DNA of 64,000 nt from a virus (Duplodnaviria; Caudoviricetes), in IMG/VR virus record IMGVR_UViG_3300037467_001298, positions 4,174 through 68,173 of that record; one strand, 5' to 3'. This document shows positions 2,613-35,325 of this stretch, one piece after another (position 1 is the first letter of the stretch; every line of letters begins with the position of its first letter). A program made the translations under genes and the position numbers. The notes below the pieces were generated by a model. That model was not told the DNA's origin. It ran no database searches and saw only the letters and a program-made list of their open reading frames with translations.

Positions 2613-3113
2613 ATGAAAAATGATTTTATAATTCTTATTGGTTCTGATGGAAGTGGTAAATCAACAATAGCCGAGGCATTATCTAATGAACTTGGCTATC
2701 CTGTTGAACACCATGGACCTGTTAAATCATACCAAGAAGGAAAAGATGAATATTTTAAAAACATTCTTGATATTGAGTATTCAGTTATCAAAGATCGTTT
2801 CCATGAAGGTGAAAAAATATATGCTCCAATTTATCGTGGATACGAGGCAGATTATTTTGGTGAACTTGAATATTTATTACAATTAAAATTTAATCCTTTG
2901 CTTGTTTTAATTAGACCACCATTTAAAGTTATTGAACAGAGGTTAGAAGAACGTGGTGAGGATTTTGTAAAACAAGAACATTGGTTTTATTGTTATTTAA
3001 AACTAAATGACATCTATAATCAGTCTAATCTTCCAAAAATAACTATTGATACAAGTGTATATACTGCTGAAGAAAATGTTAAAAAAATAATCAATGCTTT
3101 AGGTTTACATTAA
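2613..3113 (+). CDS. P-loop deoxynucleoside monophosphate kinase (thymidylate-kinase-like)
   Basis: Walker A GSDGSGKST, DRFHEGEKIY (DR motif), lid RLEERGE; lies just upstream of the TS homolog. Confidence 0.8.
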   Translation: MKNDFIILIGSDGSGKSTIAEALSNELGYPVEHHGPVKSYQEGKDEYFKNILDIEYSVIKDRFHEGEKIYAPIYRGYEADYFGELEYLLQLKFNPLLVLIRPPFKVIEQRLEERGEDFVKQEHWFYCYLKLNDIYNQSNLPKITIDTSVYTAEENVKKIINALGLH

Positions 3114-3168
3114 TATTTATTATATATATAATATTTTTGTAATGATAATTTATTTGGAGGTAATAAAA

Positions 3169-3435
3169 ATGAAAGTTATTATGCCCGAGAAAAAACAGTT
3201 CAAATTAAAATTAGGAGATATTCTTCATACAGGTTTTGGTGATATTTACATTGCTTCAAAGTTCACCGATCAAACATTTGCTTGGTTTAATAATAAAGGA
3301 TATTGTGCAAATGGTGTATATAATTCACTTGAGGATTTAGAAAGAGCAAGTCAAAAATATTTTACAGATCCTGAATACACTATTTACAGTTCTGATGACT
3401 ATGATTTACAATTAGTTCCTAAAGGAGTAAAATAA
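3169..3435 (+). CDS. hypothetical protein (dispersed ~90 aa paralog family)
   Basis: GGAGG RBS before ATG 3169; LKLGDIL..G..YI pattern. Confidence 0.75.
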   Translation: MKVIMPEKKQFKLKLGDILHTGFGDIYIASKFTDQTFAWFNNKGYCANGVYNSLEDLERASQKYFTDPEYTIYSSDDYDLQLVPKGVK

Positions 3436-3436
3436 A

Positions 3437-4468
3437 ATGTTTATTATTGAAGGAGAATCATTTGAGGAAGTCTATAAAAAATCAATTATAGAAATTCTTA
3501 AAAATGGTGATGTAGTTGCTCCTCGCGGTTCAGCAACATTTGAATTAGCACCTGCAACTATTGTAATTAAAAACGCTAGAAAATTTTTAACAATGCCAAA
3601 GTTAAGAAAAGGTAATTATACTTTTCAATTAGCAGAAGCATTATGGATGTTACGAGGTTCAAACGACCTTGAAGAAATCGCTCATTATAATAAGGTATGG
3701 CGTAACTTTGAAGATGAAGACGACCCAGGAATTTTAAATGGCGCTTACGGTGAAAGACTTCGTGATTGGGATATGGGTGTAGACCAATTTATTGAGGTTT
3801 ATAATAAATTGAAAAAAGATCCTTATTCACGTCAAGCAGTTGCTATGATTTGGGATCCTGTTAGAGATAATGCCATTCATGAGAATGGGAATTACTCTAA
3901 AGATATCCCTTGTACAAATTACTTCAATTTCCAAATTCGTAATGGTAAACTAAATATGTGGACTGTAATGAGAAGTAATGATTTACACAAAGGGTCTATA
4001 TATGATATTCCAAACTTTATTATTTTCCAACATATTATTGCAGGTTGGTTGGGTGTTGAAGTTGGAAAATATACGCACTCTGCTGCCTCACTTCACATTT
4101 ATGAATCTGATGTAGAAAATTTTATTGATATTTATAATGATAAAGATGATACAGTTGTTTATGATGGTGAAGATTATGGTGACCCAAGAGTTCCACTTTC
4201 TGAATTTAATTTTGTAATGTCTACTATTTCTGTTATTGAATATTCAACAAGACAGGTATTAGATAAAGAAACATTTGATGATTATTTAGAAACTTTATTA
4301 AATGTTATTAGCGATATTAAAAACACTTGGTGGAGATCTGTTGCTGCACAAATTGCTATGTATAATTATAGAAAATTAGGTGCCACTGAAGAAGAATTTA
4401 AGAAATTCTTACCTTTTATTACTAATGAATATAGAAAAAATGTTGAAAAATGGAGGAGTTTAGTATGA
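3437..4468 (+). CDS. thymidylate synthase homolog, predicted dCMP hydroxymethylase-type
   Basis: AEALWML, YGERL, SRQAV, catalytic DIPC, RSNDLHKGSIYD with Asp at the N177-equivalent position, SLHIY. Confidence 0.85.
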   Translation: MFIIEGESFEEVYKKSIIEILKNGDVVAPRGSATFELAPATIVIKNARKFLTMPKLRKGNYTFQLAEALWMLRGSNDLEEIAHYNKVWRNFEDEDDPGILNGAYGERLRDWDMGVDQFIEVYNKLKKDPYSRQAVAMIWDPVRDNAIHENGNYSKDIPCTNYFNFQIRNGKLNMWTVMRSNDLHKGSIYDIPNFIIFQHIIAGWLGVEVGKYTHSAASLHIYESDVENFIDIYNDKDDTVVYDGEDYGDPRVPLSEFNFVMSTISVIEYSTRQVLDKETFDDYLETLLNVISDIKNTWWRSVAAQIAMYNYRKLGATEEEFKKFLPFITNEYRKNVEKWRSLV

Positions 4469-4728
4469 AAATCAGTATAGAACAAATTAGAGGCGAAAAA
4501 CCTAAAACTGAACCTAAACTTGGTCAAATCTATTCTGGTTGCGGTTCTTATTATATTGTATCAAAGGCATATACAAGAAATAATGAAACTCTATATAATC
4601 TAACAAATCTTGAAACTGGTTCACGATGGACAAATGAACTTTCTAAGGATGAATTGGAAGCGGAAATAAATTTCCATAGTTTCAAACTTGTCAATGTAAA
4701 AGAAATAGTAATTAAGGAGGAAATTTAA
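4465..4728 (+). CDS. hypothetical protein (dispersed ~90 aa paralog family)
   Basis: ATGA overlap with TS stop; PKLGQIY..G.YYI...Y.L.NLETG. Confidence 0.75.
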   Translation: MKISIEQIRGEKPKTEPKLGQIYSGCGSYYIVSKAYTRNNETLYNLTNLETGSRWTNELSKDELEAEINFHSFKLVNVKEIVIKEEI

Positions 4729-4731
4729 TTA

Positions 4732-5949
4732 ATGAAGGTACTTGGAGCATTTATTTTTATGGGTTCTGCAACCATTGGCGTAATGAATAATGGTGTAAAG
4801 CCCAACAGAATTTTGGAATTATCAGATGGAATGACACAAGATAATGCTATGCACTTTGTCCATAACTATCCTGAAATTCCTGTTATTGAACCTGCTGTAT
4901 GGGAAAACGATGAATATTTAGAAGAACTTCGTAAAGAGGAATTCGATTTACTGTACGGAAATCCTCCATGTTCGGGATTAAGTTTAGGTGTTCGTGGTGG
5001 GCAATCTCATGAAAAAGGCCCCAACTGTCACCAATATCGCTATATGGAAATTATTAAAAAAGTACAACCTAAAGCATTTATGTATGAGAATGCTCCTACG
5101 TTGATTAGTACAGGAAAACCAATCTTAAATGATTTTATTAAAGGTCTTCCTAATTATAATTTCACTATTATTCGTGAATTTGGTTGCTATCATAATGTTG
5201 CTATGAAGCGTCAAAGAACATTCTTCATTGGATGGCGTAAAGACGTATTTGAAAAAGTTCCTACGCTTCACATGAGTAAAACAGAAAAACCTACAACCGT
5301 TCGTGATATCTTAGGAGATCTTTTCGATGTGCCTGTTGGTCACTCTAATGTATTAAATCACGAGTTAATCCCAGGTCGTCCGTATCAAGACGTAGAATTT
5401 GTTTTTCCTGATGTTCCTTATGTTAAAGGTGGAGAATATACTGTAAACTGGGTAATCTGTAATGAGTATGAAAAGTATGAGCCGCTATTAAAAGAAAAAA
5501 CTAAAAAAGCATTAAAAACTCAATTATTTAAACAAAGAAATGGTTTAGGTTATTGGGATAAATCTTCTCAACGTCCGAATCCTGATAAACAAGCACCATC
5601 AATGACTGGATATGCAAGTTTCATCCATCCTATTCATCACCGTCAATTTACTGTTCGTGAGTACGCTCGTTTAATGGGATATCCCGATACATTTGAAATT
5701 CTTCCGCATAAGGAAGTTGTTCGTCATATGGCTCAAGGAGTACCTGCTCGTTATTTTGAATGGGCATCAGGTGAAGTGCTTGCTGCGTTGCGTGGACAAA
5801 GACATTCTCATCAACAGTTTGAAGATACTCGAGTTATATTCCAACATCATACAAAAGAATTGATGACTGAATTCACAACTGAAGAGTTCTTAAATACATT
5901 AAAAATTGCAGAAGTAAAAAATGAAAAACAACAGAAACTAACGGTTTAA
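4732..5949 (+). CDS. DNA (cytosine-C5) methyltransferase homolog with degenerate motifs I and X
   Basis: Motif IV GNPPCSGLS, VI YENAP, VIII MKRQRTFFIG, IX RQFTVREYARLMGYPD. Motif I reads FIFMGS instead of FxGxG; motif X reads MAQGVP instead of IGNAV. Confidence 0.85.
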   Translation: MKVLGAFIFMGSATIGVMNNGVKPNRILELSDGMTQDNAMHFVHNYPEIPVIEPAVWENDEYLEELRKEEFDLLYGNPPCSGLSLGVRGGQSHEKGPNCHQYRYMEIIKKVQPKAFMYENAPTLISTGKPILNDFIKGLPNYNFTIIREFGCYHNVAMKRQRTFFIGWRKDVFEKVPTLHMSKTEKPTTVRDILGDLFDVPVGHSNVLNHELIPGRPYQDVEFVFPDVPYVKGGEYTVNWVICNEYEKYEPLLKEKTKKALKTQLFKQRNGLGYWDKSSQRPNPDKQAPSMTGYASFIHPIHHRQFTVREYARLMGYPDTFEILPHKEVVRHMAQGVPARYFEWASGEVLAALRGQRHSHQQFEDTRVIFQHHTKELMTEFTTEEFLNTLKIAEVKNEKQQKLTV

Positions 5950-5982
5950 TCCGTTAGTTCTGTTACATAGGAGAATGATAAA

Positions 5983-6387
5983 ATGGAAGAATACATTTAT
6001 AAAGGTGATTTAGTTAATGATTATATTGTTTTACAAGCGTCACCTAAACATTGGCATTTAGTAAATAAAAAAGATTTTAATAGATGGTCAGATTGTGGAA
6101 TTGAATATAGAATTGACAAAGTTTCCAATGAATCATATATAACTCGTGAAGATATTGAAAGAATGTACCCATTTGAATTTAAGGGTTTTAAACTTGTGCG
6201 TAAAAATGATTGGCAAAACAATAAACAAACAACTAAAGCAGAATGTAACCATAATGTAAGTCAAATAGAAATTGAACGTATTATTGCTCATTCTATTTGT
6301 AATACAAGAGATGGGGAACATCAAGGTCTTGTGATTGCAAAAATTGCAAAAAGTATTTTATCATTTTTATCAGAGAAAGGAATATAA
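5983..6387 (+). CDS. hypothetical protein
   Basis: GGAG RBS, 134 aa ORF. Confidence 0.75.
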   Translation: MEEYIYKGDLVNDYIVLQASPKHWHLVNKKDFNRWSDCGIEYRIDKVSNESYITREDIERMYPFEFKGFKLVRKNDWQNNKQTTKAECNHNVSQIEIERIIAHSICNTRDGEHQGLVIAKIAKSILSFLSEKGI

Positions 6388-6390
6388 TAA

Positions 6391-6657
6391 ATGAGTAATA
6401 TTAAGGTTTTAAAATTTGGTGCTACTTGGTGTGGACCGTGTAAGATGTTAGATCCTATTATGTACGAATTAAAAGATGAATACCCTAATATAGAATTTCA
6501 GTTTGTAAACGTTGATGAAGAACCTGAAATAACAGGACAATTTGGTGTTATGGGTATACCTCGAGTTATGGTTTATAAAAATGATGAAAAAGTTGAAGAT
6601 TTTACAGGATTTAAACCTAAAACGGTAATTGAACAAATGATAAATTTTCATATATAA
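6391..6657 (+). CDS. trxA: thioredoxin
   Basis: FGATWCGPCK active site; GVMGIP cis-Pro loop. Confidence 0.95.
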   Translation: MSNIKVLKFGATWCGPCKMLDPIMYELKDEYPNIEFQFVNVDEEPEITGQFGVMGIPRVMVYKNDEKVEDFTGFKPKTVIEQMINFHI

Positions 6658-6666
6658 TAATGAAAC

Positions 6667-6698
6667 AAAACGATATAACTTATGTTATGTCGTTTTTT
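6667..6698 (+). terminator. intrinsic terminator
   Basis: AAAACGATATAAC-ttat-GTTATGTCGTTTTTT hairpin with U-tract. Confidence 0.7.
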
Positions 6699-16763: not shown

Positions 16764-17156
16764 ATGATAAATACGTTGCAAATGGTACTTGATAAACAAG
16801 CGGAGTTTCAAAAGAAGTTTGGATTTGAAGGATTAGAGCAGACCGATATTGAAACGGTCTCTTCTTTAATCCATACTCATTCACATTTTACAATGGAAGA
16901 ACTTTTTGAAATGGAAAGAGAACTTCCATATCATAAACCCTGGAAAGATTATTCAGGGTTAACTAAATACGAAGTTATAGAAAATTTTCAAAAAGGAAGA
17001 GAAGAATGGATTGATGCTTTTATCTTTCTAATGAATGTTGGGTTATTCTTAGGTTTCGATTCAAAACTAATTGAGCAAATGTATTTAGAAAAACTTGGAA
17101 TAAATCATAAAAGACAAGAAGATCCAAAACTAGGATATATTACGGAGGTAAATTAA
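16764..17156 (+). CDS. all-alpha NTP pyrophosphatase (dimeric dUTPase / T4 gp56 dCTPase-like, MazG superfamily)
   Basis: LDKQAEFQ, MEELFEM, HKPWK, REEWIDAFIFLMNV, KLGINHKRQ. Confidence 0.8.
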   Translation: MINTLQMVLDKQAEFQKKFGFEGLEQTDIETVSSLIHTHSHFTMEELFEMERELPYHKPWKDYSGLTKYEVIENFQKGREEWIDAFIFLMNVGLFLGFDSKLIEQMYLEKLGINHKRQEDPKLGYITEVN

Positions 17157-17342
17157 ATGAGATTAACATTAAGCGGTGGAATATTGAGAGCAGGAAATAT
17201 TGAGGTTGGGTCAACAATTACAACTTTTGGACCAGACGGTGAAGAAACAACAATTGAAAAACCATCATATTTAATTAAAGATGATGGAACAAAGGTAGAG
17301 TTAACAAAAGAACAAGCAAAACAATATGGTATCGGTAAATAA
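17157..17342 (+). CDS. hypothetical protein
   Basis: GGAGG RBS, 61 aa ORF. Confidence 0.7.
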   Translation: MRLTLSGGILRAGNIEVGSTITTFGPDGEETTIEKPSYLIKDDGTKVELTKEQAKQYGIGK

Positions 17343-17444
17343 TGCGATATAACGAACGGATGGTAGGGATTAACGAATCTCTACCATTTGTCGTATTTTG
17401 TCGATATTTGTTTAGAAAAGAGAATGTTTTTAAGACAAATCCTA

Positions 17445-17473
17445 TTTACATAATTTTCATATGATGTTATTAT
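17445..17473 (+). promoter_or_regulatory. sigmaA-type promoter
   Basis: TTTACA-N17-TATTAT, extended TG. Confidence 0.55.
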
Positions 17474-17554
17474 ATACATATACAAATTAATAAAAAAATA
17501 TTTAAAAAAGCGTTTAAAAGTGATAAAATATGTATATAATAATAAAAATATGAA

Positions 17555-17983
17555 ATGAGGATGAATGTAATGGCTGTTCAAACAGATTTAAGTATTATTA
17601 AGGAAATTATTGAAATGACTTGCGAAGAGAAAGTAAAACTAATATTTGCTGAAAAACCAGGTTGGTTACTGATGAAAACAGCCGATAAAAATAAAGGAAT
17701 TGGTGCTATAAGATTAAATAAAAATTCATTTATTACTTTATATGTTGATACTAATGAAGGTTACTTATTAGAAGATAAAATTACTGAACTTGAAACATTT
17801 AAAGGAAAAATTATTGATATAAATTCAAAGGTAACTGGAAACTTTGTACAAAATAAAATTAAACTTTACAGTGAGGATGCTATTGAATTTGCTATTGAAC
17901 TTATAAATAAAGTATTTAATGAAGGTGCTGTATTTACAGGAAAAAGAATAAGAGTATCAAAAACCGAAACAAGCGTCGCCTAG
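17555..17983 (+). CDS. hypothetical monocistronic protein, possible DUF5655/YjbR-like fold
   Basis: C-terminal KIKLYSEDAIEFAIELINKVF pattern; own promoter and terminator. Confidence 0.65.
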   Translation: MRMNVMAVQTDLSIIKEIIEMTCEEKVKLIFAEKPGWLLMKTADKNKGIGAIRLNKNSFITLYVDTNEGYLLEDKITELETFKGKIIDINSKVTGNFVQNKIKLYSEDAIEFAIELINKVFNEGAVFTGKRIRVSKTETSVA

Positions 17984-17999
17984 GCGGCGTTTTTATTTT
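17972..17999 (+). terminator. intrinsic terminator
   Basis: GCGTCGCC/GGCGGCGT GC-rich stem with TTTTTATTTT. Confidence 0.75.
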
Positions 18000-18160
18000 C
18001 CCAATTATCGGAACAGTCCGACAATTTAATAGACAAGTAATTAATATATTTACTATTAGTATTAATATAATAATTCATTACATTCATTATTATAATGGAA
18101 AAAATAGTATCTGTAAACTGAAATTAAAAAATTTCTATTTTAAAATTAAAATATATTTGG

Positions 18161-18189
18161 TTTACATATAATTAAAAAGTATATATAAT
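18161..18189 (+). promoter_or_regulatory. sigmaA-type promoter of the kinase-phosphatase-nucleotidyltransferase-GT operon
   Basis: TTTACA-N17-TATAAT. Confidence 0.75.
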
Positions 18190-18216
18190 ATTGATATATT
18201 TAAATGGAGGTGTCAT

Positions 18217-19251
18217 ATGGGTAAAGTCAATATTTTAAAAGAGTTTAAAGGTGGAAGTATGGCAAGAACCTTTTTAGTCGATAAATATGGACAAAAATAT
18301 GTTAGGAAAATTGCGGCCAATGATAAAGATGGGTTAGGTATTGAAAAACTTTATAAGCAATGGAAATGGCAATTTGACTTTTGTAGAAATGATGAACCAG
18401 GAGTTATGCCTGATACTTCATTTTTTGTGTTTGGGAAGGACTCTGGTTACTATGATATGGAATATGTAGAACTTGGTACTTTTCTTGATTTATTACTTAA
18501 TGAGGAAGATATTGATGGAATGATTCTTCATGATATATTAAAAGCAGGGTCATTAATAGCAAAACCTGTAGATGAAGAACCTAAACATGATTATTTATTA
18601 GTTAATCATTTACAAAAAATGGTAAAAAGAACTCAATCACTACAACCTTATGAGTTTTACAAACATGATTCAATTGATATAAATGGAAAGTCATGTCAAA
18701 ATCTTCATAGAATATTAGAGTTTATTGTAAACGAACCTGGGCTAATTAAGTTATTATCACCTAAAAAATTATATAGGTCTCATGGTGATTTTACTTTCCA
18801 AAACATTCTTGCTGATGAATATGATTTGGTTGTAATAGACCCACGTGGTGAAGGTGCTGACTCAATTTATTATGATATTAGCAAACTTTATCAAAGTTGT
18901 CATGGTAAATATGATTTACTTTTTGATGGTAATTATAGAGTTTGGTCAGATGGTTATACTGATGTTATCAATTATGAGATACTTGATGGTGTAGAAAAAT
19001 TCAATGCTATTTATGATGAGCTTCGTGAACTAATACCTCAGTATTATGAAATTGAAGATGAGCATTGGGAATTAATTACAAAATTTTATGAGGCAAGTCA
19101 CTTCATTTCAATGACACCTTTTAGATTAAAAGAAAATGGAAATATAACAGCAGTCTGTTATGCAATTGGTATAGAATTATTAAATGAGGTAGTGGAGGAA
19201 TATTTAAATGTTAAATCTGAACTTAAAAAACAAGAAAGCATTACTATTTGA
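18217..19251 (+). CDS. APH/choline-kinase-fold small-molecule kinase
   Basis: Gly loop KGGSMART, VRK lysine, YDMEYV hinge, HGDFTFQNIL catalytic loop, IDPRG. Confidence 0.85.
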   Translation: MGKVNILKEFKGGSMARTFLVDKYGQKYVRKIAANDKDGLGIEKLYKQWKWQFDFCRNDEPGVMPDTSFFVFGKDSGYYDMEYVELGTFLDLLLNEEDIDGMILHDILKAGSLIAKPVDEEPKHDYLLVNHLQKMVKRTQSLQPYEFYKHDSIDINGKSCQNLHRILEFIVNEPGLIKLLSPKKLYRSHGDFTFQNILADEYDLVVIDPRGEGADSIYYDISKLYQSCHGKYDLLFDGNYRVWSDGYTDVINYEILDGVEKFNAIYDELRELIPQYYEIEDEHWELITKFYEASHFISMTPFRLKENGNITAVCYAIGIELLNEVVEEYLNVKSELKKQESITI

Positions 19252-19813
19252 TGTAGACGGTACTATCGCTGATACAATGCCAGCACATAATAAAGCATAT
19301 GAGTTAGCATTCCATTTAAACAATGTTCCTTTTGATATTGAACTTCATAAAACATATGCCCCTTTTGGTGGTAATGTATTAATGAGGGAAACTGTTGAAG
19401 CAATAGGTTATGGTGCTCAAGCGCATCAAATCATTAAGGATAAACAAGCATTATTGGGTTTTTGTTTAGATAGATTTATGAGACCCAATACTGAACTCAT
19501 TAATTTTATTAAACAAAATGTTGAGAAATATTATATTGCTTTTGTATCAAATGGTCGTAGAACAAGTATTCAACAAGTACTTGAAAAATTAGGTTTATTA
19601 TATTATGCTGATTATATTACAACATCTGATATTTTGGGCGCTGCGAAGCCCTCACCAGAAGCATATAATTATACAATGCTCATGTTAGGTGTTAATCCTG
19701 ATGAAGTAATTACATTTGAGGATAATGAGATTGGTATTACTGCTGCAACTCGTGCTAAAATAAAAGATATTATTAAAGTTAATACGGAGGATTTTAGATT
19801 TGAAAAACTTTAA
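19208..19813 (+). CDS. HAD-superfamily sugar phosphatase/mutase (beta-PGM-like)
   Basis: FDVDGTIADT, FVSNG, AKPSPEAY, FEDNEIG. Confidence 0.92.
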   Translation: MLNLNLKNKKALLFDVDGTIADTMPAHNKAYELAFHLNNVPFDIELHKTYAPFGGNVLMRETVEAIGYGAQAHQIIKDKQALLGFCLDRFMRPNTELINFIKQNVEKYYIAFVSNGRRTSIQQVLEKLGLLYYADYITTSDILGAAKPSPEAYNYTMLMLGVNPDEVITFEDNEIGITAATRAKIKDIIKVNTEDFRFEKL

Positions 19814-20546
19814 AGGTATTATACTCGCAGGTGGTAGAGGATCTCGCCTATCACCTATAACAGATGTATATAATAAATATTTATGTCCTGTTTATGATAA
19901 ACTCATGATAGAATATTCTATCCTATCATTAAAAGATGCAGGAATAACTGATATAGCAATTATTCTTGGTACAAAGTCTGCTGGTGAAACAATGGACTAT
20001 CTCAAATCAGGTAAAAAATATGGTGTTAAATTTACATATTTTTATCAGGATGAGCCGCTGGGAGTTCCGAATGCTCTGTATCAGGCTAAAGATTGGGCTG
20101 GACTAACTAACGTAGTTGTATTGTGCGCTGATAATATTATTTATGATAATTTAATGCCATTCTTAGAAATGTATAAAGGCGGAGGTTTTATTACAACTAA
20201 ATTCTTTAATGATAAAGAGGAACTAAAGAGATTCGCTGTGCTAGAGTTTGATGAAGATTTAAGTATTAATAAAATTGTAGAAAAACCTGAAAACCCTAAA
20301 TCCTCCCTAGCATTTTGTGGGATACAAATATACGATTTACAATTATGGTCAATTATTAAAGGACTGGAACCTTCTAGACGCGGTGAATATGAAATTGTGG
20401 ATGTATTAAATGAATATATTAATCGTAAAAAGTTTAGTTATGGAACATTAACCAAACAATGGTTCGACTGTGGCAATAAGGATGCTTTGTTTGAAGCACA
20501 ACAATATGCTTTCTTTAATTCGATTGAGGAGGCCCTAAACAAATGA
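19800..20546 (+). CDS. sugar-1-phosphate nucleotidyltransferase (RmlA/SpsI-like)
   Basis: GIILAGGRGSRLSPIT..NK, QDEPLG, ADNI, VEKP, PSRRGEYEIVD, WFDCG; TTG start. Confidence 0.92.
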   Translation: MKNFKGIILAGGRGSRLSPITDVYNKYLCPVYDKLMIEYSILSLKDAGITDIAIILGTKSAGETMDYLKSGKKYGVKFTYFYQDEPLGVPNALYQAKDWAGLTNVVVLCADNIIYDNLMPFLEMYKGGGFITTKFFNDKEELKRFAVLEFDEDLSINKIVEKPENPKSSLAFCGIQIYDLQLWSIIKGLEPSRRGEYEIVDVLNEYINRKKFSYGTLTKQWFDCGNKDALFEAQQYAFFNSIEEALNK

Positions 20547-21994
20547 CCTATCAAATTATTAATTCCCATAAAGACAACCCTAATAAAAAGAATATTATGT
20601 TATTCTTGCTCGAGAGAAATCTCGGCAAGAAAACTAATTTCTTGTCATATTCATATATACTTAATACTGTTAAAATTTTACAAAAAGATTTCAATGTTTT
20701 CCTCGTTGCCCGTTCATCAAGTTCAAGAGGCGCCTGGATAGAGGTAGCATTACAAACACCTATTTTGAAAGACTGTATACTTATTAATCTTGATGCTTCA
20801 GGAAGGTTTATGAGAGTTGAAACAGGCGAACAGGAGTTATATGATGATGATAAAGCCGCATACAATTATACTTATAAGTATATGGATACTTTGTTTACTA
20901 ACCTCATTCATGGTGAGCCATGGATATTTAATAATCTCGTTGGCACTATTTCTTCTGCTCTTTTTCTTGTATATGAAAGGAATCACGAAATTATACCATA
21001 CGATGAAAGAACTGAAAAACTCTCAGCAGGAGCCATGGAAACAGCCCGTAAACGACTTACAGGGGAACGTCAATTCTTCTCGTTCCGAATGATTAGTCAG
21101 AGATGTATGTATCCTTTATACTTCCTCACAAGACTTATGAGGGACTATCCAAATTTATGGCATTACTCATTCTGTCACGATACTAGCTCAATATGGTACC
21201 CATGGTCTGCTAAGGTAAATCCTCTTACAAAAAATGTTAAATGTTTTTACTTTGTAAATGATGATAGAGGACCTATGAGGGATTTTAAAGAATTCCCATC
21301 TGCGCAGATTCAAGATGCCTTTGGTAAAAAACAATTGACAAAGGATGAGTTAAATGATATTCTCAATAATAAAAAACATGATTTTATCTTTGGCGGAACT
21401 TTTCCTTATGATGTTAGTTACCGCTTGGCGGATTGGGTACGTTATTTTAATGACCTTAATTGTGATGCTACTATTCGTACTCAAACTGATGGTACTTCCA
21501 CTATTACTTGTACAGAGATTAAGGATCCACTCGAAACAAAGAAATTCAAAGGTAAAAAGATAAAAGATGAAAAGGCGTTAGATGTTATTAGAAGTATTTC
21601 TGTCAATAAGAATGTTAAACCTACTGTATCTCAACAAGAGTATCACGAGGAACAAAAGGATTATATGTTTACAATTATTTTAAAATGCTTTTATGGTAAG
21701 TATGATTCTTTAAACTTTAGGATTTATTCTTCATTAGCAAATGGCGTTATTCCTTTATTAGCTAATGACTATGATGTTGATTGCCTTCAAATTCCGTTAT
21801 TATTTAAACAACTATTAACGGTTAGAGATAATATTGATATTGAAGAAAAGATTGAATATTATAAAAATAACCCTGAAAAATATAAGGAACTATTTTGGGC
21901 ACTCTATAATCACTATGTAAAGCCTGAACACTATCAAAATGAGTGGTATGAAAAAGTGTTCAAAGAAAATTATTTTAATGAATTATATAAATAA
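20543..21994 (+). CDS. GT-B glycosyltransferase, T4 beta-glucosyltransferase-like (GT1)
   Basis: KKHDFIFGGTF resembles T4 BGT KTLDVIYGGSF; LNFRIYSSLANGVIPLLANDYD resembles ITLRVWETMASDAVMLIDEEFD; final helices IEEKIEYYKNNPEKYKEL. By-eye alignment. Confidence 0.65.
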   Translation: MTYQIINSHKDNPNKKNIMLFLLERNLGKKTNFLSYSYILNTVKILQKDFNVFLVARSSSSRGAWIEVALQTPILKDCILINLDASGRFMRVETGEQELYDDDKAAYNYTYKYMDTLFTNLIHGEPWIFNNLVGTISSALFLVYERNHEIIPYDERTEKLSAGAMETARKRLTGERQFFSFRMISQRCMYPLYFLTRLMRDYPNLWHYSFCHDTSSIWYPWSAKVNPLTKNVKCFYFVNDDRGPMRDFKEFPSAQIQDAFGKKQLTKDELNDILNNKKHDFIFGGTFPYDVSYRLADWVRYFNDLNCDATIRTQTDGTSTITCTEIKDPLETKKFKGKKIKDEKALDVIRSISVNKNVKPTVSQQEYHEEQKDYMFTIILKCFYGKYDSLNFRIYSSLANGVIPLLANDYDVDCLQIPLLFKQLLTVRDNIDIEEKIEYYKNNPEKYKELFWALYNHYVKPEHYQNEWYEKVFKENYFNELYK

Positions 21995-22784: not shown

Positions 22785-23513
22785 ATGGAGGTGTTTAATT
22801 TGGAATATGGGTTTATTTATATTACAACTAACAATATTAATAATAAAAAATATATTGGCAAATGTAAATATAAACCAGGTAGTAAAAATTACTTAGGTTC
22901 AGGCTTACATTTGAAACGTGCTATTAATAAATATGGAAAAGAAAACTTTTCAAGAGATATTATTGATACTGCTAAAAATGAAAATGAATTAAATAAAAAA
23001 GAAAAGTATTGGATTGATTTTTATAATGCTATACATTCTGATAATTTTTATAATATAGCAGAAGGTGGGCATGGTGGTAATACATTAGCTGGGAAAACAG
23101 AAGAGGAATTAAAACAATTTGGCGAAATTATAAGTAATGCAAATAAAGGAAGAAAATGGTCGGATGAAAGCAAACTTAATAGAAGTAAAGAAAGGAAAGG
23201 CAAATTTACAGGTAAAGACCATCATATGTTTGGTAAAAAACTTTCTGACGAACAAAAAAAGAAAATTAGTAATAAAGTAAAAGGTGGTAAGAATCCATCA
23301 GCAAAGAAAGTTTATATTTATAAAGGTAGTGAATTAATAAAAGTTTGTAATACTTTTGATGAGACAGTTCATTGGTTTTATAAACAATATCGTGCTTATT
23401 CTCTTACTACAAGTAATAAATTAATAAGAAATTTAAGAAAAAGTGGTGGTACTTGTATTAAAACAGGATTAAGTTTTAGTGATAAAAAATTAGGAGGTAT
23501 TAACAATGAGTAG
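22785..23513 (+). mobile_element. free-standing GIY-YIG homing endonuclease with NUMOD3-like repeats
   Basis: GFIY...KKYIG, YLGSG, ELNKKEKYWI, YNIAEGG, HHMFGKKLSDEQKKKIS. Confidence 0.88.
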
Positions 23514-24717
23514 GGTTGGCTTCGGGAAAATGGGCCGTTCAATATATTTTGATAGAAAAAAATGGAAAGAAAATGCGGGAAATAATGAAGCACCAATATT
23601 AATAAGTGCCATTGCAAAACTTCAACCTAATACTACTTACTATTTAATTGGTAAATCTGATTTCAGTAGGGTGTCAGATGATATTAGGAAAGAATGGTTT
23701 CCACATAATAATGTAATTGATTGTTGGAAAGATTTCAATCCTAAGCAACACGACCCAACAACATGGATTTGGGAACAGTTAAAAAATAAAAATTTAGATT
23801 ATTGTATAATTCACGGTGGGATGGCTTCTCTAAGTATACCAAATAAAATATATTGCTTAGATAGAAAAACAAAAAAACCTGACTACTCAAAACTAAGACA
23901 ACCTCTTGCATCACTTGTTAATTATTGCTCACCAATAACATATTTTTTAAATGAGTCAAAAATAGATTGGTTAACAATTACATCAGATGGAAGGTATATG
24001 CCTCTACCTGCTCGCGATTTAATTAATCCTGAGAAAATTAGTTTGGGTGTTAGAGAAGGTGTTGTAGAAATCGAACGAATGAAATCCTATGAGGACCAAG
24101 AAACAATGGTTAAGCATAAAGTAGATTTACGTTACGCTGCTGCCGAATTTCAATATTTACTTGATCCTAAATTCAGCACATTTAGGTATAACGAGGAAAA
24201 AACTCAAAAAGTTGGTTTATTCTTTCATCAATATGATAATAAAAAACGTGTAGCTGCAATTCAAGATATTATTGAGCAATTTGGTGAAGATGAAATTGCA
24301 GTATATGGAAAATGGGAATTAGCAGGTCATGATAAAAGGTATAAAGGTCCTGTGAACTTTGAAGAATTACAAGATATTTTACCTTCTGTTAAATATACTT
24401 TCTGCTATCCTATAATTCCTAATGACTTTTCAGGTAAATGGGTTGAAAGTGTTCGAGCTGGTATAATTCCGTTCTTCCATTCAACTTATGGTGATAGGAA
24501 AATAATGTCAAGATATGATAAATCATTTGAGTGGCTTTATGTTGATAATGGACAAGAAATGAAACAAAAGATAGAATATCTTGAACAAAATCCTACAGCG
24601 TATTATAGGATGAAAAATTTACTTATATCAACAGTTAGTCGTTTCCCTAAAAATGGCGCCTCATTTGTTAATGCAATAAACAAAGCAGTAAAAGACATGA
24701 AAGGTATGAGAAAATAA
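23506..24717 (+). CDS. GT-B glycosyltransferase, T4 beta-glucosyltransferase-like (GT2)
   Basis: N-terminal RVGFGKMG...NNEAPILISAI resembles BGT KIAIINMG...SSETIYLFKVI; YKGPVNFEEL, FSGKWVESVRAGIIPFF, LYVDNGQEMKQKIEYLEQNP resemble the BGT C-terminus. By-eye alignment. Confidence 0.65.
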   Translation: MSRVGFGKMGRSIYFDRKKWKENAGNNEAPILISAIAKLQPNTTYYLIGKSDFSRVSDDIRKEWFPHNNVIDCWKDFNPKQHDPTTWIWEQLKNKNLDYCIIHGGMASLSIPNKIYCLDRKTKKPDYSKLRQPLASLVNYCSPITYFLNESKIDWLTITSDGRYMPLPARDLINPEKISLGVREGVVEIERMKSYEDQETMVKHKVDLRYAAAEFQYLLDPKFSTFRYNEEKTQKVGLFFHQYDNKKRVAAIQDIIEQFGEDEIAVYGKWELAGHDKRYKGPVNFEELQDILPSVKYTFCYPIIPNDFSGKWVESVRAGIIPFFHSTYGDRKIMSRYDKSFEWLYVDNGQEMKQKIEYLEQNPTAYYRMKNLLISTVSRFPKNGASFVNAINKAVKDMKGMRK

Positions 24718-25114: not shown

Positions 25115-25810
25115 ATGACCTCTCAAATGATTGTAGATGAGCCTTATGGGTTCATCTACGTCACAGAAAATTTATTAAATGGTAAAAAGTATATTGGCCA
25201 ACATACTAATTTTAATGATAAGTATTTAGGTAGTGGTACAGTAATTAAAAAAGCAATAGGAAAGTATGGTAATAAAAACTTTAAAAGAAAAATCATATAT
25301 ATTGCTTATAACGAAAGTGAATTGAATTTTGCTGAAAAATTGTTTATCCGTTCAAGAAATGCTGTTAAAAGTAATATGTATTATAATATTGCTGAAGGTG
25401 GATTAGGTGGTAATTCTTGGGCAGGAAAAACAAATGAAGAAATTGAAATTATTAAATATAAAATAAGTGAAGGTATGAAAGGTAATAAAAATCCTGTATT
25501 TGGTAAAACAGGAATAAATGCTCCTTTCTTTGGAAAAACTTATACTCATACAAATGAGGCTAAACAAAAAATTGGAATAGCAAATAAAATTGCTCAACAA
25601 AAGAAAGTATTACTTGTTGATATTAAAGGCAATATAATTGAAATATTTCAATCTGTTGATGAAGTAAAGAAAGGAAACTGGAGGAAACAATTTCCAAAGC
25701 CAAATGGTATGGATTATGTTATGAACTGTTTGAGAAATAAGTTATTATTTCATAATCATTATTTAATTTACGAAGGTGATTATAATGAGTTCAAGTCAAA
25801 TGCGTTCTGA
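25115..25810 (+). mobile_element. second free-standing GIY-YIG homing endonuclease
   Basis: GFIY...KKYIG, YLGSG, ELNFAEKLFI, YNIAEGG, NPVFGK and HTNEAKQKI NUMOD3-like segments. Confidence 0.88.
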
Positions 25811-26190: not shown

Positions 26191-26709
26191 ATGAATAAAG
26201 TACGTGGATTTGAAGTTGCGAAAGGTTTTGAACAAAAAGGAATTAATTTACCAGCAAGACAAACAAAAAATGCTGCAGGTTATGATTTTGAAGCCGCTGA
26301 ATATACTACAATCCCTTCAATTTGGAAACAAGGTTTCAAATATATCTTCAATAAAATTTTTAGTGGCGGAAATGAAGTTGATGAAAAACTATTCAAACCA
26401 ACATTAGTTGCTACAGGAGTTAAATCTTATATGGGAACAGATGAAGTATTATATCTGTATAACCGTTCGTCAAATCCATTGAAAAAATTCTTATTGCTTG
26501 GAAATGGAGTGGGCGTTATTGATTCGGATTATTATGAGAACCCTGATAATGATGGTCATATCATGTTTCAGTTTATTAACTTTGGTATTCTTGATAAAAC
26601 TATTGCGCCAGGTGATAGAATAGGCCAAGGTGTATTCGCTCAATTTCTAAAAGCCGATAATGATACTGTAAATAAAGAACGTCAGGGTGGATTTGGAAGT
26701 ACTAATTAA
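26191..26709 (+). CDS. dut: trimeric dUTPase
   Basis: AGYDF, RSS, GVIDSDYY, PGDRIGQGVF, RQGGFGST motifs I-V. Confidence 0.95.
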   Translation: MNKVRGFEVAKGFEQKGINLPARQTKNAAGYDFEAAEYTTIPSIWKQGFKYIFNKIFSGGNEVDEKLFKPTLVATGVKSYMGTDEVLYLYNRSSNPLKKFLLLGNGVGVIDSDYYENPDNDGHIMFQFINFGILDKTIAPGDRIGQGVFAQFLKADNDTVNKERQGGFGSTN

Positions 26710-34971: not shown

Positions 34972-35325
34972 GTGGCTAATCGTCGTCGTAATGCTTTAGT
35001 TGTTCCAGGTGTTGACCAATACTTGAATCAATTTAAACTTGAAATTGCTAAGGAACTTGGTATTCAAGATTACGATAATATAGATAAAGGCGCTTTACCT
35101 GCTCGTGTACATGGTATGATTGGTGGTACAATGACTAAACGCTTGATTGAAATGGGACAACAGATGTTAGCTGGACAAGATACAACGCAGTCCAATTTGA
35201 AACCACAAGAATATGTTCAGCAAATGCAAGAAGAAATTACTGATGAGGCACAAAATGCTTATGCTAAAGCACCTGTTGTTCCTATTCCTGGTGAGATAGT
35301 TGAAACACAATCTACGCTGCATTAA
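34972..35325 (+). CDS. alpha/beta-type small acid-soluble spore protein with C-terminal extension
   Basis: NALVVPGVDQYLNQFKLEIAKELG...LPARVHGMIGGTMTKRLIEMGQQML SASP signature; GTG start. Confidence 0.9.
   Translation: MANRRRNALVVPGVDQYLNQFKLEIAKELGIQDYDNIDKGALPARVHGMIGGTMTKRLIEMGQQMLAGQDTTQSNLKPQEYVQQMQEEITDEAQNAYAKAPVVPIPGEIVETQSTLH

Follow-up and report, generated by a model that had tools for sequence, protein, structure and literature searches.

C5-methyltransferases (C5-MTases) are among the best-understood DNA enzymes, and a natural branch that kept their covalent chemistry while losing or changing the group donor would, if true, reveal a new reaction on DNA cytosine. Does such a branch exist in phages that make 5-hydroxymethylcytosine (5hmC or hmC)? 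The question is raised by an open reading frame (ORF) at positions 4732-5949 (plus strand) of a 64,000-nucleotide stretch of viral DNA, hereafter called the window (IMG/VR record IMGVR_UViG_3300037467_001298; Duplodnaviria, Caudoviricetes). The window represents most of this 68-kb record, whose completeness is estimated at 77%. The ORF starts with an ATG at 4732, stops at 5947-5949 and is preceded, 11 nucleotides 5' of the ATG, by a Shine-Dalgarno sequence, AAGGAGG (4714-4720, plus strand). It encodes a 405-residue protein of a family named here F1, the family of gp301 of Bacillus phage G. We propose that the ORF is a functional member of an apparently virus-only clade of C5-MTase-fold enzymes. 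These enzymes would attack the C6 of the base covalently without methylating it from S-adenosylmethionine (SAM), and would belong to the hmC pathway, with 5hmC in DNA as their most likely substrate. We give this reading a probability of roughly 0.4.

Fold, motifs and conservation of the 405-residue protein

A preliminary description of this DNA had read in the ORF an intact catalytic core (GNPPC, ENA and R-x-R), a motif I FIFMGS with a Phe on a conserved Gly, and a motif X AQGVP instead of GNAV. It had proposed an AlphaFold model and an assessment of purifying selection on motif I as checks. The AlphaFold2 model, for which 52 homologues served as input, reached a predicted local distance difference test (pLDDT) score of 93.6 and a predicted template modelling (pTM) score of 0.91. 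Its best Foldseek matches are all C5-MTases, namely MET1, 3g7u, M.HaeIII, DNMT1, CmoX (8yf3, rank 6) and M.HhaI, with a probability of 1.00 for MET1, M.HaeIII, M.HhaI and DNMT1. As modelled, the protein is a two-domain C5-MTase fold. The source annotations label the ORF a cytosine methyltransferase, and the Pfam profile PF00145 scores it at 82.9 bits (cut-off 22). This match is confined to profile positions 56-303, so that motif I of the ORF is not recognised. TIGR00675, the NCBIfam model of the dcm superfamily, gives 56 bits, under its cut-off of 100.65.

The three motif readings were borne out by alignment to known enzymes and by the family. The altered motif I, F-I-F-M-G-S, corresponds to residues 7-12 (4750-4767; all motif coordinates are on the plus strand). 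Four alignments served to examine its register. The structure 3g7u was aligned by phmmer and, together with 8yf3, by the family profile; 16 canonical C5-MTases were compared through hhalign; and the last was a merged, three-way alignment. In all four, Phe7 falls on the canonical Phe. The three Gly columns, of which the first is invariant, are occupied by Phe9, Gly11 and Ser12 in this order. Hence, the Gly-rich loop FxGxGG is not found, the middle Gly alone being retained in F1. In the model, five loop residues (7-11) connect a strand (residues 3-6) to a helix (12-18). Since this loop is as long as the FxGxG stretch, the register needs no deletion. Another register, in which Phe9 would be the canonical Phe at the price of a two-residue loop deletion and which gives a canonical-looking F-[ASCG]-G, is disfavoured by the four alignments and by the length of the modelled loop.

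Beyond motif I, the cofactor side is partly conserved. The motif II acid is Glu29 (4816-4818), which the alignment to 8yf3 matches with Glu47 of CmoX, a residue that binds the cofactor ribose (PMC12783734). The motif III Asp, which binds the adenine N6, appears to have no conserved counterpart in F1; its position falls in a two-residue gap (hhalign and 8yf3 alignments) or on Ser55 (merged alignment). Motif X, A-Q-G-V-P (residues 334-338; 5731-5745), is devoid of the Asn of the canonical GNxVP. In the alignments to HaeIII and 8yf3, Gln335 stands in the column of the Asn of HaeIII GNAVP, of HhaI Asn304 and of CmoX Arg350. Alignment to these solved structures would place both Phe9 and Gln335 in the cofactor pocket.

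The catalytic motifs are present. Motif IV, N-P-P-C-S-G-L-S (residues 77-84, within GNPPCSGLS 76-84; 4960-4983), carries the nucleophile Cys80. The Gln of the canonical PCQ is changed to Ser81 and the Phe two residues on to Leu83, both being invariant in the canonical set. Motif VI, E-N-A-P-T (residues 119-123; 5086-5100), has Ala121 for the Val of ENV, which is also invariant in the canonical set. Motif VIII, M-K-R-Q-R-T (residues 158-163; 5203-5220), brings Arg160 and Arg162, and motif IX is intact. The two Arg as well as Cys80, Glu119 and Asn120 align with canonical invariants. After the last motif, the protein continues with a C-terminal extension of about 50 residues (356-405; 5797-5946). 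Strands at 368-372 and 377-381 are predicted in it at high pLDDT, and the motif FQHH is conserved. Its tail reads K-L-(E/T)-x and does not fit QL(S/D)LF, the consensus of tails that bind the sliding clamp.

Family F1 is well populated. A word search found about 95 homologues at 36-80% identity, phage G gp301 among them, and an exhaustive search gave 31 clusters with E <= 1e-30, followed by a gap before ordinary methylases. Residues were counted over 113 full-length members (31-80% identity). C80, S81, S84, N98, E119, N120, M158, R160, R162, E310 and V337 are found in all 113, as is Gly11. S12, E29, W57, Q335 and G336 occur in 112, Ala121 in 110 and Phe9 in 107, with a Tyr in three of the others. 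At position 7, about two thirds of the members have an aromatic residue. Among 52 F1 sequences, 33 columns are invariant. The ratio of non-synonymous to synonymous substitutions (dN/dS) against a 77%-identical homologue (L005) is about 0.09, with saturated dS. Motif conservation together with the low dN/dS indicates that the altered motifs are selected features, and the proposed assessment of motif I thus comes out in favour of purifying selection (Phe9 in 107/113, Gln335 in 112/113). Pseudogene decay is ruled out by the intact ORF, the strong ribosome binding site, the 33 invariant columns and the dN/dS. One member of 382 residues, P0104, is the only one of the 113 with a Gly at position 9, and it is also the only one with a Lys at 335, its motif X being VKGVA. 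This pairing hints that positions 9 and 335 work together, and P0104 could represent a natural reversion or a switch of cofactor.

Many weaker matches of the F1 search form a second family, F2, about 25% identical to F1 and with the consensus IxPLIGG ... VPPCAGLS ... GENAP ... QxRxR ... QNVP. Comparison of the two families with hhalign gives a probability of 100% across 365 columns. These take in the recognition domain, where both have the motif K..G.G.WDKS, and the C-terminal region, where the FQHH region of F1 aligns with a QNN region of F2. According to the merged alignment, the first Gly of motif I is changed to Phe in F1 and to Leu in F2, and the Gln of PCQ to Ser in F1 and to Ala in F2. 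Both families have Leu for the Phe two residues past that Gln, Ala for the Val of ENV and Gln for the Asn of GNxVP. These five changes fall in motifs I, IV, VI and X, that is, in the cofactor-facing and C5-facing motifs, and the remaining catalytic and structural invariants are retained in F1 and F2. The motif II Glu is lost in F2 and retained in F1. Cultured F2 carriers are the cyanophages S-TIM5 and S-TIM54, in which the product is annotated "DNA methylase", and other carriers are marine T4-like phages.

The F1 family looks virus-only. No F1 member was found among 185,579 prokaryotic species, with one genome each, the best match being 28% identical, and in the ESM Atlas the closest clusters are of 97-100% viral composition. 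In the literature searched, we found no paper describing the F1/F2 family, and PF00145 is unmentioned in the MetaGPA paper and its supplements.

Linkage to the hydroxymethylcytosine pathway

As had been noticed in the preliminary description, the C5-MTase-like gene lies two genes downstream of a thymidylate synthase (TS) homologue (3437-4468, plus strand; PF00303), the best PDB match of which is the CMP hydroxymethylase MilA. The ORF between them (4450-4728, plus strand) encodes 92 residues, overlaps the TS stop, matches phrog_7591 weakly and is not conserved in other loci. The segment KDIPC...MRSNDLHKGSIYD of the TS homologue was compared with published signature criteria, N177D, L143D and D169 (PMC13326640). 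It has N177D, which is cytosine-specific, and L143D, which goes with a hydroxymethyl product, and it keeps D169. On these residues the TS homologue is probably of the 5hm-dCMP-synthase type. A 5-hydroxy-dCMP synthase of the D169N type is ruled out since D169 is retained.

Just upstream lies a P-loop deoxynucleoside monophosphate (dNMP) kinase, probably for hm-dCMP (2613-3113, plus strand; phrog_761). A consensus scan finds a promoter-like site, TTTACA-17-TATAAT (3104-3132, plus strand), 5' of the block 3142-6657, and a terminator-like hairpin (6667-6696, plus strand) 3' of a thioredoxin gene (6391-6657) that follows the C5-MTase-like gene. The two elements bracket the TS homologue, the 92-residue ORF, the C5-MTase-like gene and the thioredoxin, and the kinase gene stands just upstream of the promoter-like site. 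A thioredoxin also follows the C5-MTase-like gene in the 77% relative (L005, around 11373), but not in more distant loci.

Linkage to a TS homologue extends to the other F1 genomes. A TS homologue is found within 10 kb in 10 of 14 F1 loci, counting phage G, whose gp319 is about 13 kb off gp301. Among the four loci without a near TS, one is a near-complete jumbo record that encodes a TS elsewhere and two are fragments (3% and 37% complete); for the fourth, on the jumbo contig L003, the search covered 10 kb only. All linked TS homologues have RSND with an Asp eight residues on and another Asp at the third position ahead of the catalytic Cys, and all adequately sampled F1 genomes encode a TS homologue of the hmC type (N177D, L143D, D169). 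As a baseline, any relative of the TS homologue is present in less than 5% of 50,697 phage records. Kinase homologues adjoin the TS gene in other loci or are fused with it; two such dNMP kinase-TS fusions of about 440 residues, with a cytosine-type TS, were noted (L012:1663-2985 and L014:7493-8820). These fusions tie the kinase to the hmC pathway.

Each F1 genome checked also has a DNA glycosyltransferase (GT), of four classes overall. The enzyme is alpha-GT-like in phage G and in G003, a T4 beta-GT in L004 and G007, and a TET-associated glycosyltransferase (TAGT) in L010. In L007 a TAGT is fused to a TS domain, and a GT-B-like candidate is present in the window. Pfam searches for T4 alpha-GT and beta-GT miss GTs of the window type, and their negatives are not evidence of absence. 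As the GT class differs between genomes, the constant partner of the C5-MTase-like gene is hmC and not one sugar enzyme. The fusion in L007, a complete 133-kb phage with a C5-MTase-like gene, is an ORF of 616 residues (16903-18753) that joins a TAGT domain (PF20691) to a TS domain of the dCMP-hydroxymethylase type. In L010, an ORF similar to Tad2 (Thoeris anti-defence 2) lies between the TAGT and the TS homologue (17887-18231). Beyond the TS, kinase and GT genes, no conserved neighbour was found across the F1 loci save an HU-like gene. This gene, encoding a DNA-binding protein, is directly 3' of the C5-MTase-like gene in 6 of the 14 loci (including L004:11225-11509 and L011:11184-11609).

The window itself carries a nucleoside diphosphate (NDP)-sugar module (18217-20546, plus strand) made up of a 344-residue protein of unknown function, a HAD hydrolase (PF00702) and a nucleotidyltransferase (PF00483). 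It is followed by a candidate DNA GT of 483 residues (20543-21994, plus strand; weak PF13524), 36% identical to an ORF of L003, which is a phage G-like contig. A second candidate GT of 403 residues lies further on (23506-24717, plus strand; weak PF13524). It is flanked by two ORFs for homing endonucleases of the GIY-YIG type (phrog_314; 22785-23513 and 25115-25810). The sugar module is also present in phage G (gp311-gp309), at 47-59% identity. Around phage G gp301 are thus found the sugar module gp309-311, two alpha-GT homologues (gp306 and gp313) and the TS homologue gp319 (gene context: PMC6024577).

The F2 family is found near the same type of gene. A T4 gp42-like TS homologue is within reach in 19 of 40 non-redundant F2 loci, many of which are short fragments, and the F2 neighbours include UvsX, gp41, gp45, clamp-loader, dCMP deaminase and MazG-like genes. 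In cyanophage S-TIM54, the gene annotated "ThyA" (L170:6108-6950) has N177D and D169, but a Cys instead of an acidic residue at the L143 position; its product may be 5mC, 5hmC or another base.

Other genes of the window bear on nucleotide metabolism and on the host. An ORF similar to all-alpha NTP pyrophosphatases is a candidate dCTPase (16764-17156, plus strand; weak PF08761, E = 0.0012), and a trimeric dUTPase is encoded separately (26191-26709). The window has a G+C content of about 31%. Its DnaE-type polymerase is nearest to those of Geobacillus phage GR1 and of 90-kb Staphylococcus and Enterococcus siphoviruses, and a DNA search with the window matched no near-identical phage DNA. An alpha/beta-type small acid-soluble spore protein is encoded at 34972-35325 (PF00269, E = 2e-19); it suggests that the host is a spore-forming member of the Bacillota, and the protein may coat or protect the phage DNA.

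Possible reactions of the F1 enzymes

How can a conserved C5-MTase fold with an altered cofactor side be reconciled with a constant hmC partner? According to the reading that we prefer, the base-flipping and C6-attack machinery (Cys80, Glu119, Arg160, Arg162 and motif IX) would be kept, and the part of the pocket where the methionine and methyl of SAM are normally bound would have been remodelled in a conserved manner. From these changes, the F1 protein would probably no longer use SAM, and its ligand would carry a C5 substituent, with hmC as the probable substrate. The gene would be co-transcribed with those of the hmC pathway (dNMP kinase and 5hm-dCMP synthase, with NDP-sugar synthesis and GTs located further on), and the enzyme would bind 5hmC in newly replicated phage DNA, ahead of glycosylation. 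The 5-CH2OH group would be accommodated by Ser81 and Ala121, smaller than the canonical Gln and Val, and contacted by Gln335. Addition of Cys80 to C6 would then activate the exocyclic carbon for exchange. The hydroxyl would be lost and another nucleophile added, yielding a second modified cytosine beside glycosyl-hmC. In M.HhaI, the substitutions Q82A and N304A are used to enlarge the pocket for bulkier groups. Moreover, Liutkeviciute, Klimasauskas and co-workers reportedly found that C5-MTases lacking SAM can, in vitro, strip 5hmC of its CH2OH group or attach thiols to it.

Several points weigh against this reading. An adenosyl-containing cofactor may still bind the F1 protein, as Glu29 (112/113), whose counterpart binds the SAM ribose in HhaI as well as in CmoX, and, in about two thirds of the members, the aromatic residue at position 7 would allow. 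No gene that would supply a co-substrate is consistently linked to F1. Because a GT is already encoded in all the genomes checked, the context requires no second hmC-modifying step. Finally, the gene linkage fits equally an enzyme that targets unmodified (host) cytosine. A bolder version would make the clade the first natural SAM-independent C5-MTase fold. It would be a 5hmC transferase that swaps the hydroxyl through Cys-C6 catalysis and gives an undescribed 5-(X-methyl)cytosine beside glycosyl-hmC in phage G-like and T4-like phages; we consider this version unlikely.

The alternative that survives best is an ordinary SAM-dependent orphan C5-MTase with a divergent cofactor site, methylating at a short motif either residual cytosine in phage DNA or host DNA. 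The fold and all the catalytic motifs would suit such an enzyme, PF00145 is above its gathering threshold in agreement with the source annotation, Glu29 is kept as the ribose-binding acid in 112 of 113 members, and the length of the motif I loop is unchanged. However, the first Gly of motif I is a Phe, the Asn of motif X a Gln and PCQ has become PCS, the motif III Asp appears not to be conserved, TIGR00675 stays under its cut-off, and F2, which has the same changes, lacks the motif II Glu. Nor would ordinary methylation explain why the gene strictly accompanies a pathway that rids phage DNA of cytosine, the substrate. Furthermore, the F1 target-recognition domain has 113-126 residues, versus 68-185 in the canonical set. 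This constant length is unlike that of anti-restriction methylases, whose recognition domains vary with host restriction systems, and a conserved recognition domain would be unexpected for such a methylase. On balance, we hold this alternative to be rather unlikely.

If unmodified cytosine were the target, the enzyme could also be directed against the host. By SAM-free attack on C6 in host DNA, it would deaminate C to U or form covalent roadblocks, the glycosyl-hmC of the phage being immune. C5-MTases do deaminate cytosine when SAM is lacking. Such a role would account for occurrence only in phages with a dCMP hydroxymethylase, like the C-DNA-specific functions of T4, and it would suit the location of the gene in an early/replication block. 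Fungal RID/Masc1 proteins, which are C5-MTase-like, have been connected with C-to-T mutation, and no methylase activity has been shown for them (PMC2432034). Nevertheless, the smaller residues S81 and A121 widen the pocket at C5 and do not exclude 5-substituted bases, and neither a uracil-related gene nor a nuclease gene is a consistent neighbour. The F2 gene, amid replisome genes (UvsX, gp41, gp45), suggests action on phage DNA. An anti-host role is, in our view, quite unlikely.

A further alternative is a transferase that uses another donor. The donor would be a SAM derivative other than carboxy-SAM (Cx-SAM) or a folate one-carbon unit, and a non-methyl group would be placed on C5 of residual cytosine, for example in C-to-hmC patching. 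The retained Glu29 and the near-invariant new aromatics of the cofactor region, Phe9 (107/113) and Trp57 (112/113), can be read in this way, as can P0104, where Gly9 and Lys335 occur together. CmoX offers a precedent, as one change at Arg350, the equivalent of Gln335, switches its donor to Cx-SAM. The record has no CmoA match, and the protein has neither SPPC nor an Arg at 335. A gene for donor synthesis is not linked in any consistent way, F2 is devoid of the ribose-binding Glu, and the candidate dCTPase should leave little cytosine to modify. To this alternative we assign only a small probability.

A non-catalytic pseudoenzyme that recognises C or hmC in DNA is highly improbable: the SAM-side motifs are altered and inactive C5-MTase paralogues such as DNMT3L exist, but the Cys, the Glu of ENx and both Arg are invariant in 113/113 members and in F2, which would be unexpected without catalysis.

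Significance and comparison with known systems

Newly found phage enzymes that modify DNA have been a source of tools for mapping epigenomes and labelling DNA (bioRxiv 2024.12.05.627091; PMC13288465). There are precedents for the discovery of new reactions in known folds. A previously undescribed natural base, 5-carboxymethylcytosine, was traced to one change in the CmoX pocket, and 5-hydroxycytosine turned out to be a product of TS homologues. The branch considered here is large, appears to be virus-only and is hmC-linked in at least three phage lineages, namely Bacillota siphoviruses, phage G-like jumbo phages and marine T4-like phages. As members from culture are available (Bacillus phage G gp301, cyanophage S-TIM5), the reaction of the branch is directly testable. 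New here is the Bacillota-phage branch, represented in culture by phage G gp301. Also new are a motif II Glu that F1 keeps and F2 has lost, the side-by-side reading with CmoX, the ties to GTs of four classes, and the fusions of GT or kinase with TS.

The closest comparison is with CmoX of Synechococcus phage S-B43, a DNA cytosine C5-carboxymethyltransferase that depends on Cx-SAM (PDB 8yf3). CmoX needs the Arg of motif X, Arg350, which touches the group being placed on C5, as well as the CmoA synthase (PMC12783734). Like the F1 protein, it is a phage enzyme of the C5-MTase fold with a change at the HhaI Asn304 position and a ribose-binding Glu (Glu47 in CmoX, Glu29 in F1). In contrast, CmoX has SPPC, Arg350, a CmoA partner and a canonical Gly-rich motif I, whereas the F1 protein has NPPC, Gln335 and an altered motif I. 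For CmoA, no TIGR00740 match was found in the 68-kb record, which at about 77% completeness leaves its absence unproven. Membership in the Cx-SAM family is ruled out, as residue 335 is not an Arg, SPPC is missing and the record gave no CmoA match. The preliminary description had suggested a repurposed enzyme, acting on hmC or using a non-SAM cofactor, or else a protein that binds residual unmodified C. The idea stays reasonable in general, with motifs under purifying selection and a hydroxymethylase in all adequately sampled genomes, but its Cx-SAM option is weakened by Gln335 and by the lack of a CmoA match.

The C5-MTases associated with TET in phages (Burke et al., 2021; PMC8256090) resemble F1 in that the same fold takes part in an hmC/glycosyl-hmC pathway. 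There, 5-methylcytosine is made with SAM and then oxidised by TET; in the phage of the window, in contrast, hmC would come from the TS homologue at the nucleotide level. PF12851, searched for TET/JBP, has no match at E <= 0.1 in the record of the window, which speaks against a TET-coupled methylase. Fungal RID/Masc1/DmtA also have a C5-MTase domain and are tied to another cytosine outcome, methylase activity being undemonstrated (PMC2432034). These proteins are eukaryotic and distant, function in genome defence or sexual development and have no hmC link.

Within the viral branch, F2 differs from F1 by its motif I (PLIGG), its T4-type replisome neighbours and its marine Gram-negative or cyanobacterial hosts, versus Bacillota for F1. 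With the canonical M.HhaI, M.HaeIII and 3g7u (prophage Cp-933R), the F1 protein has in common the fold, the Pro-Cys of motif IV, the Glu-Asn of motif VI, the Arg-x-Arg of motif VIII, motif IX and the Val-Pro of motif X. Unlike them, it has Phe and Ser for the first and third Gly of motif I, PCS, ENA and AQGVP, and apparently no conserved motif III Asp. It also has an extra C-terminal region of about 50 residues, a recognition domain of constant length, an apparently virus-only distribution and a dCMP hydroxymethylase as partner.

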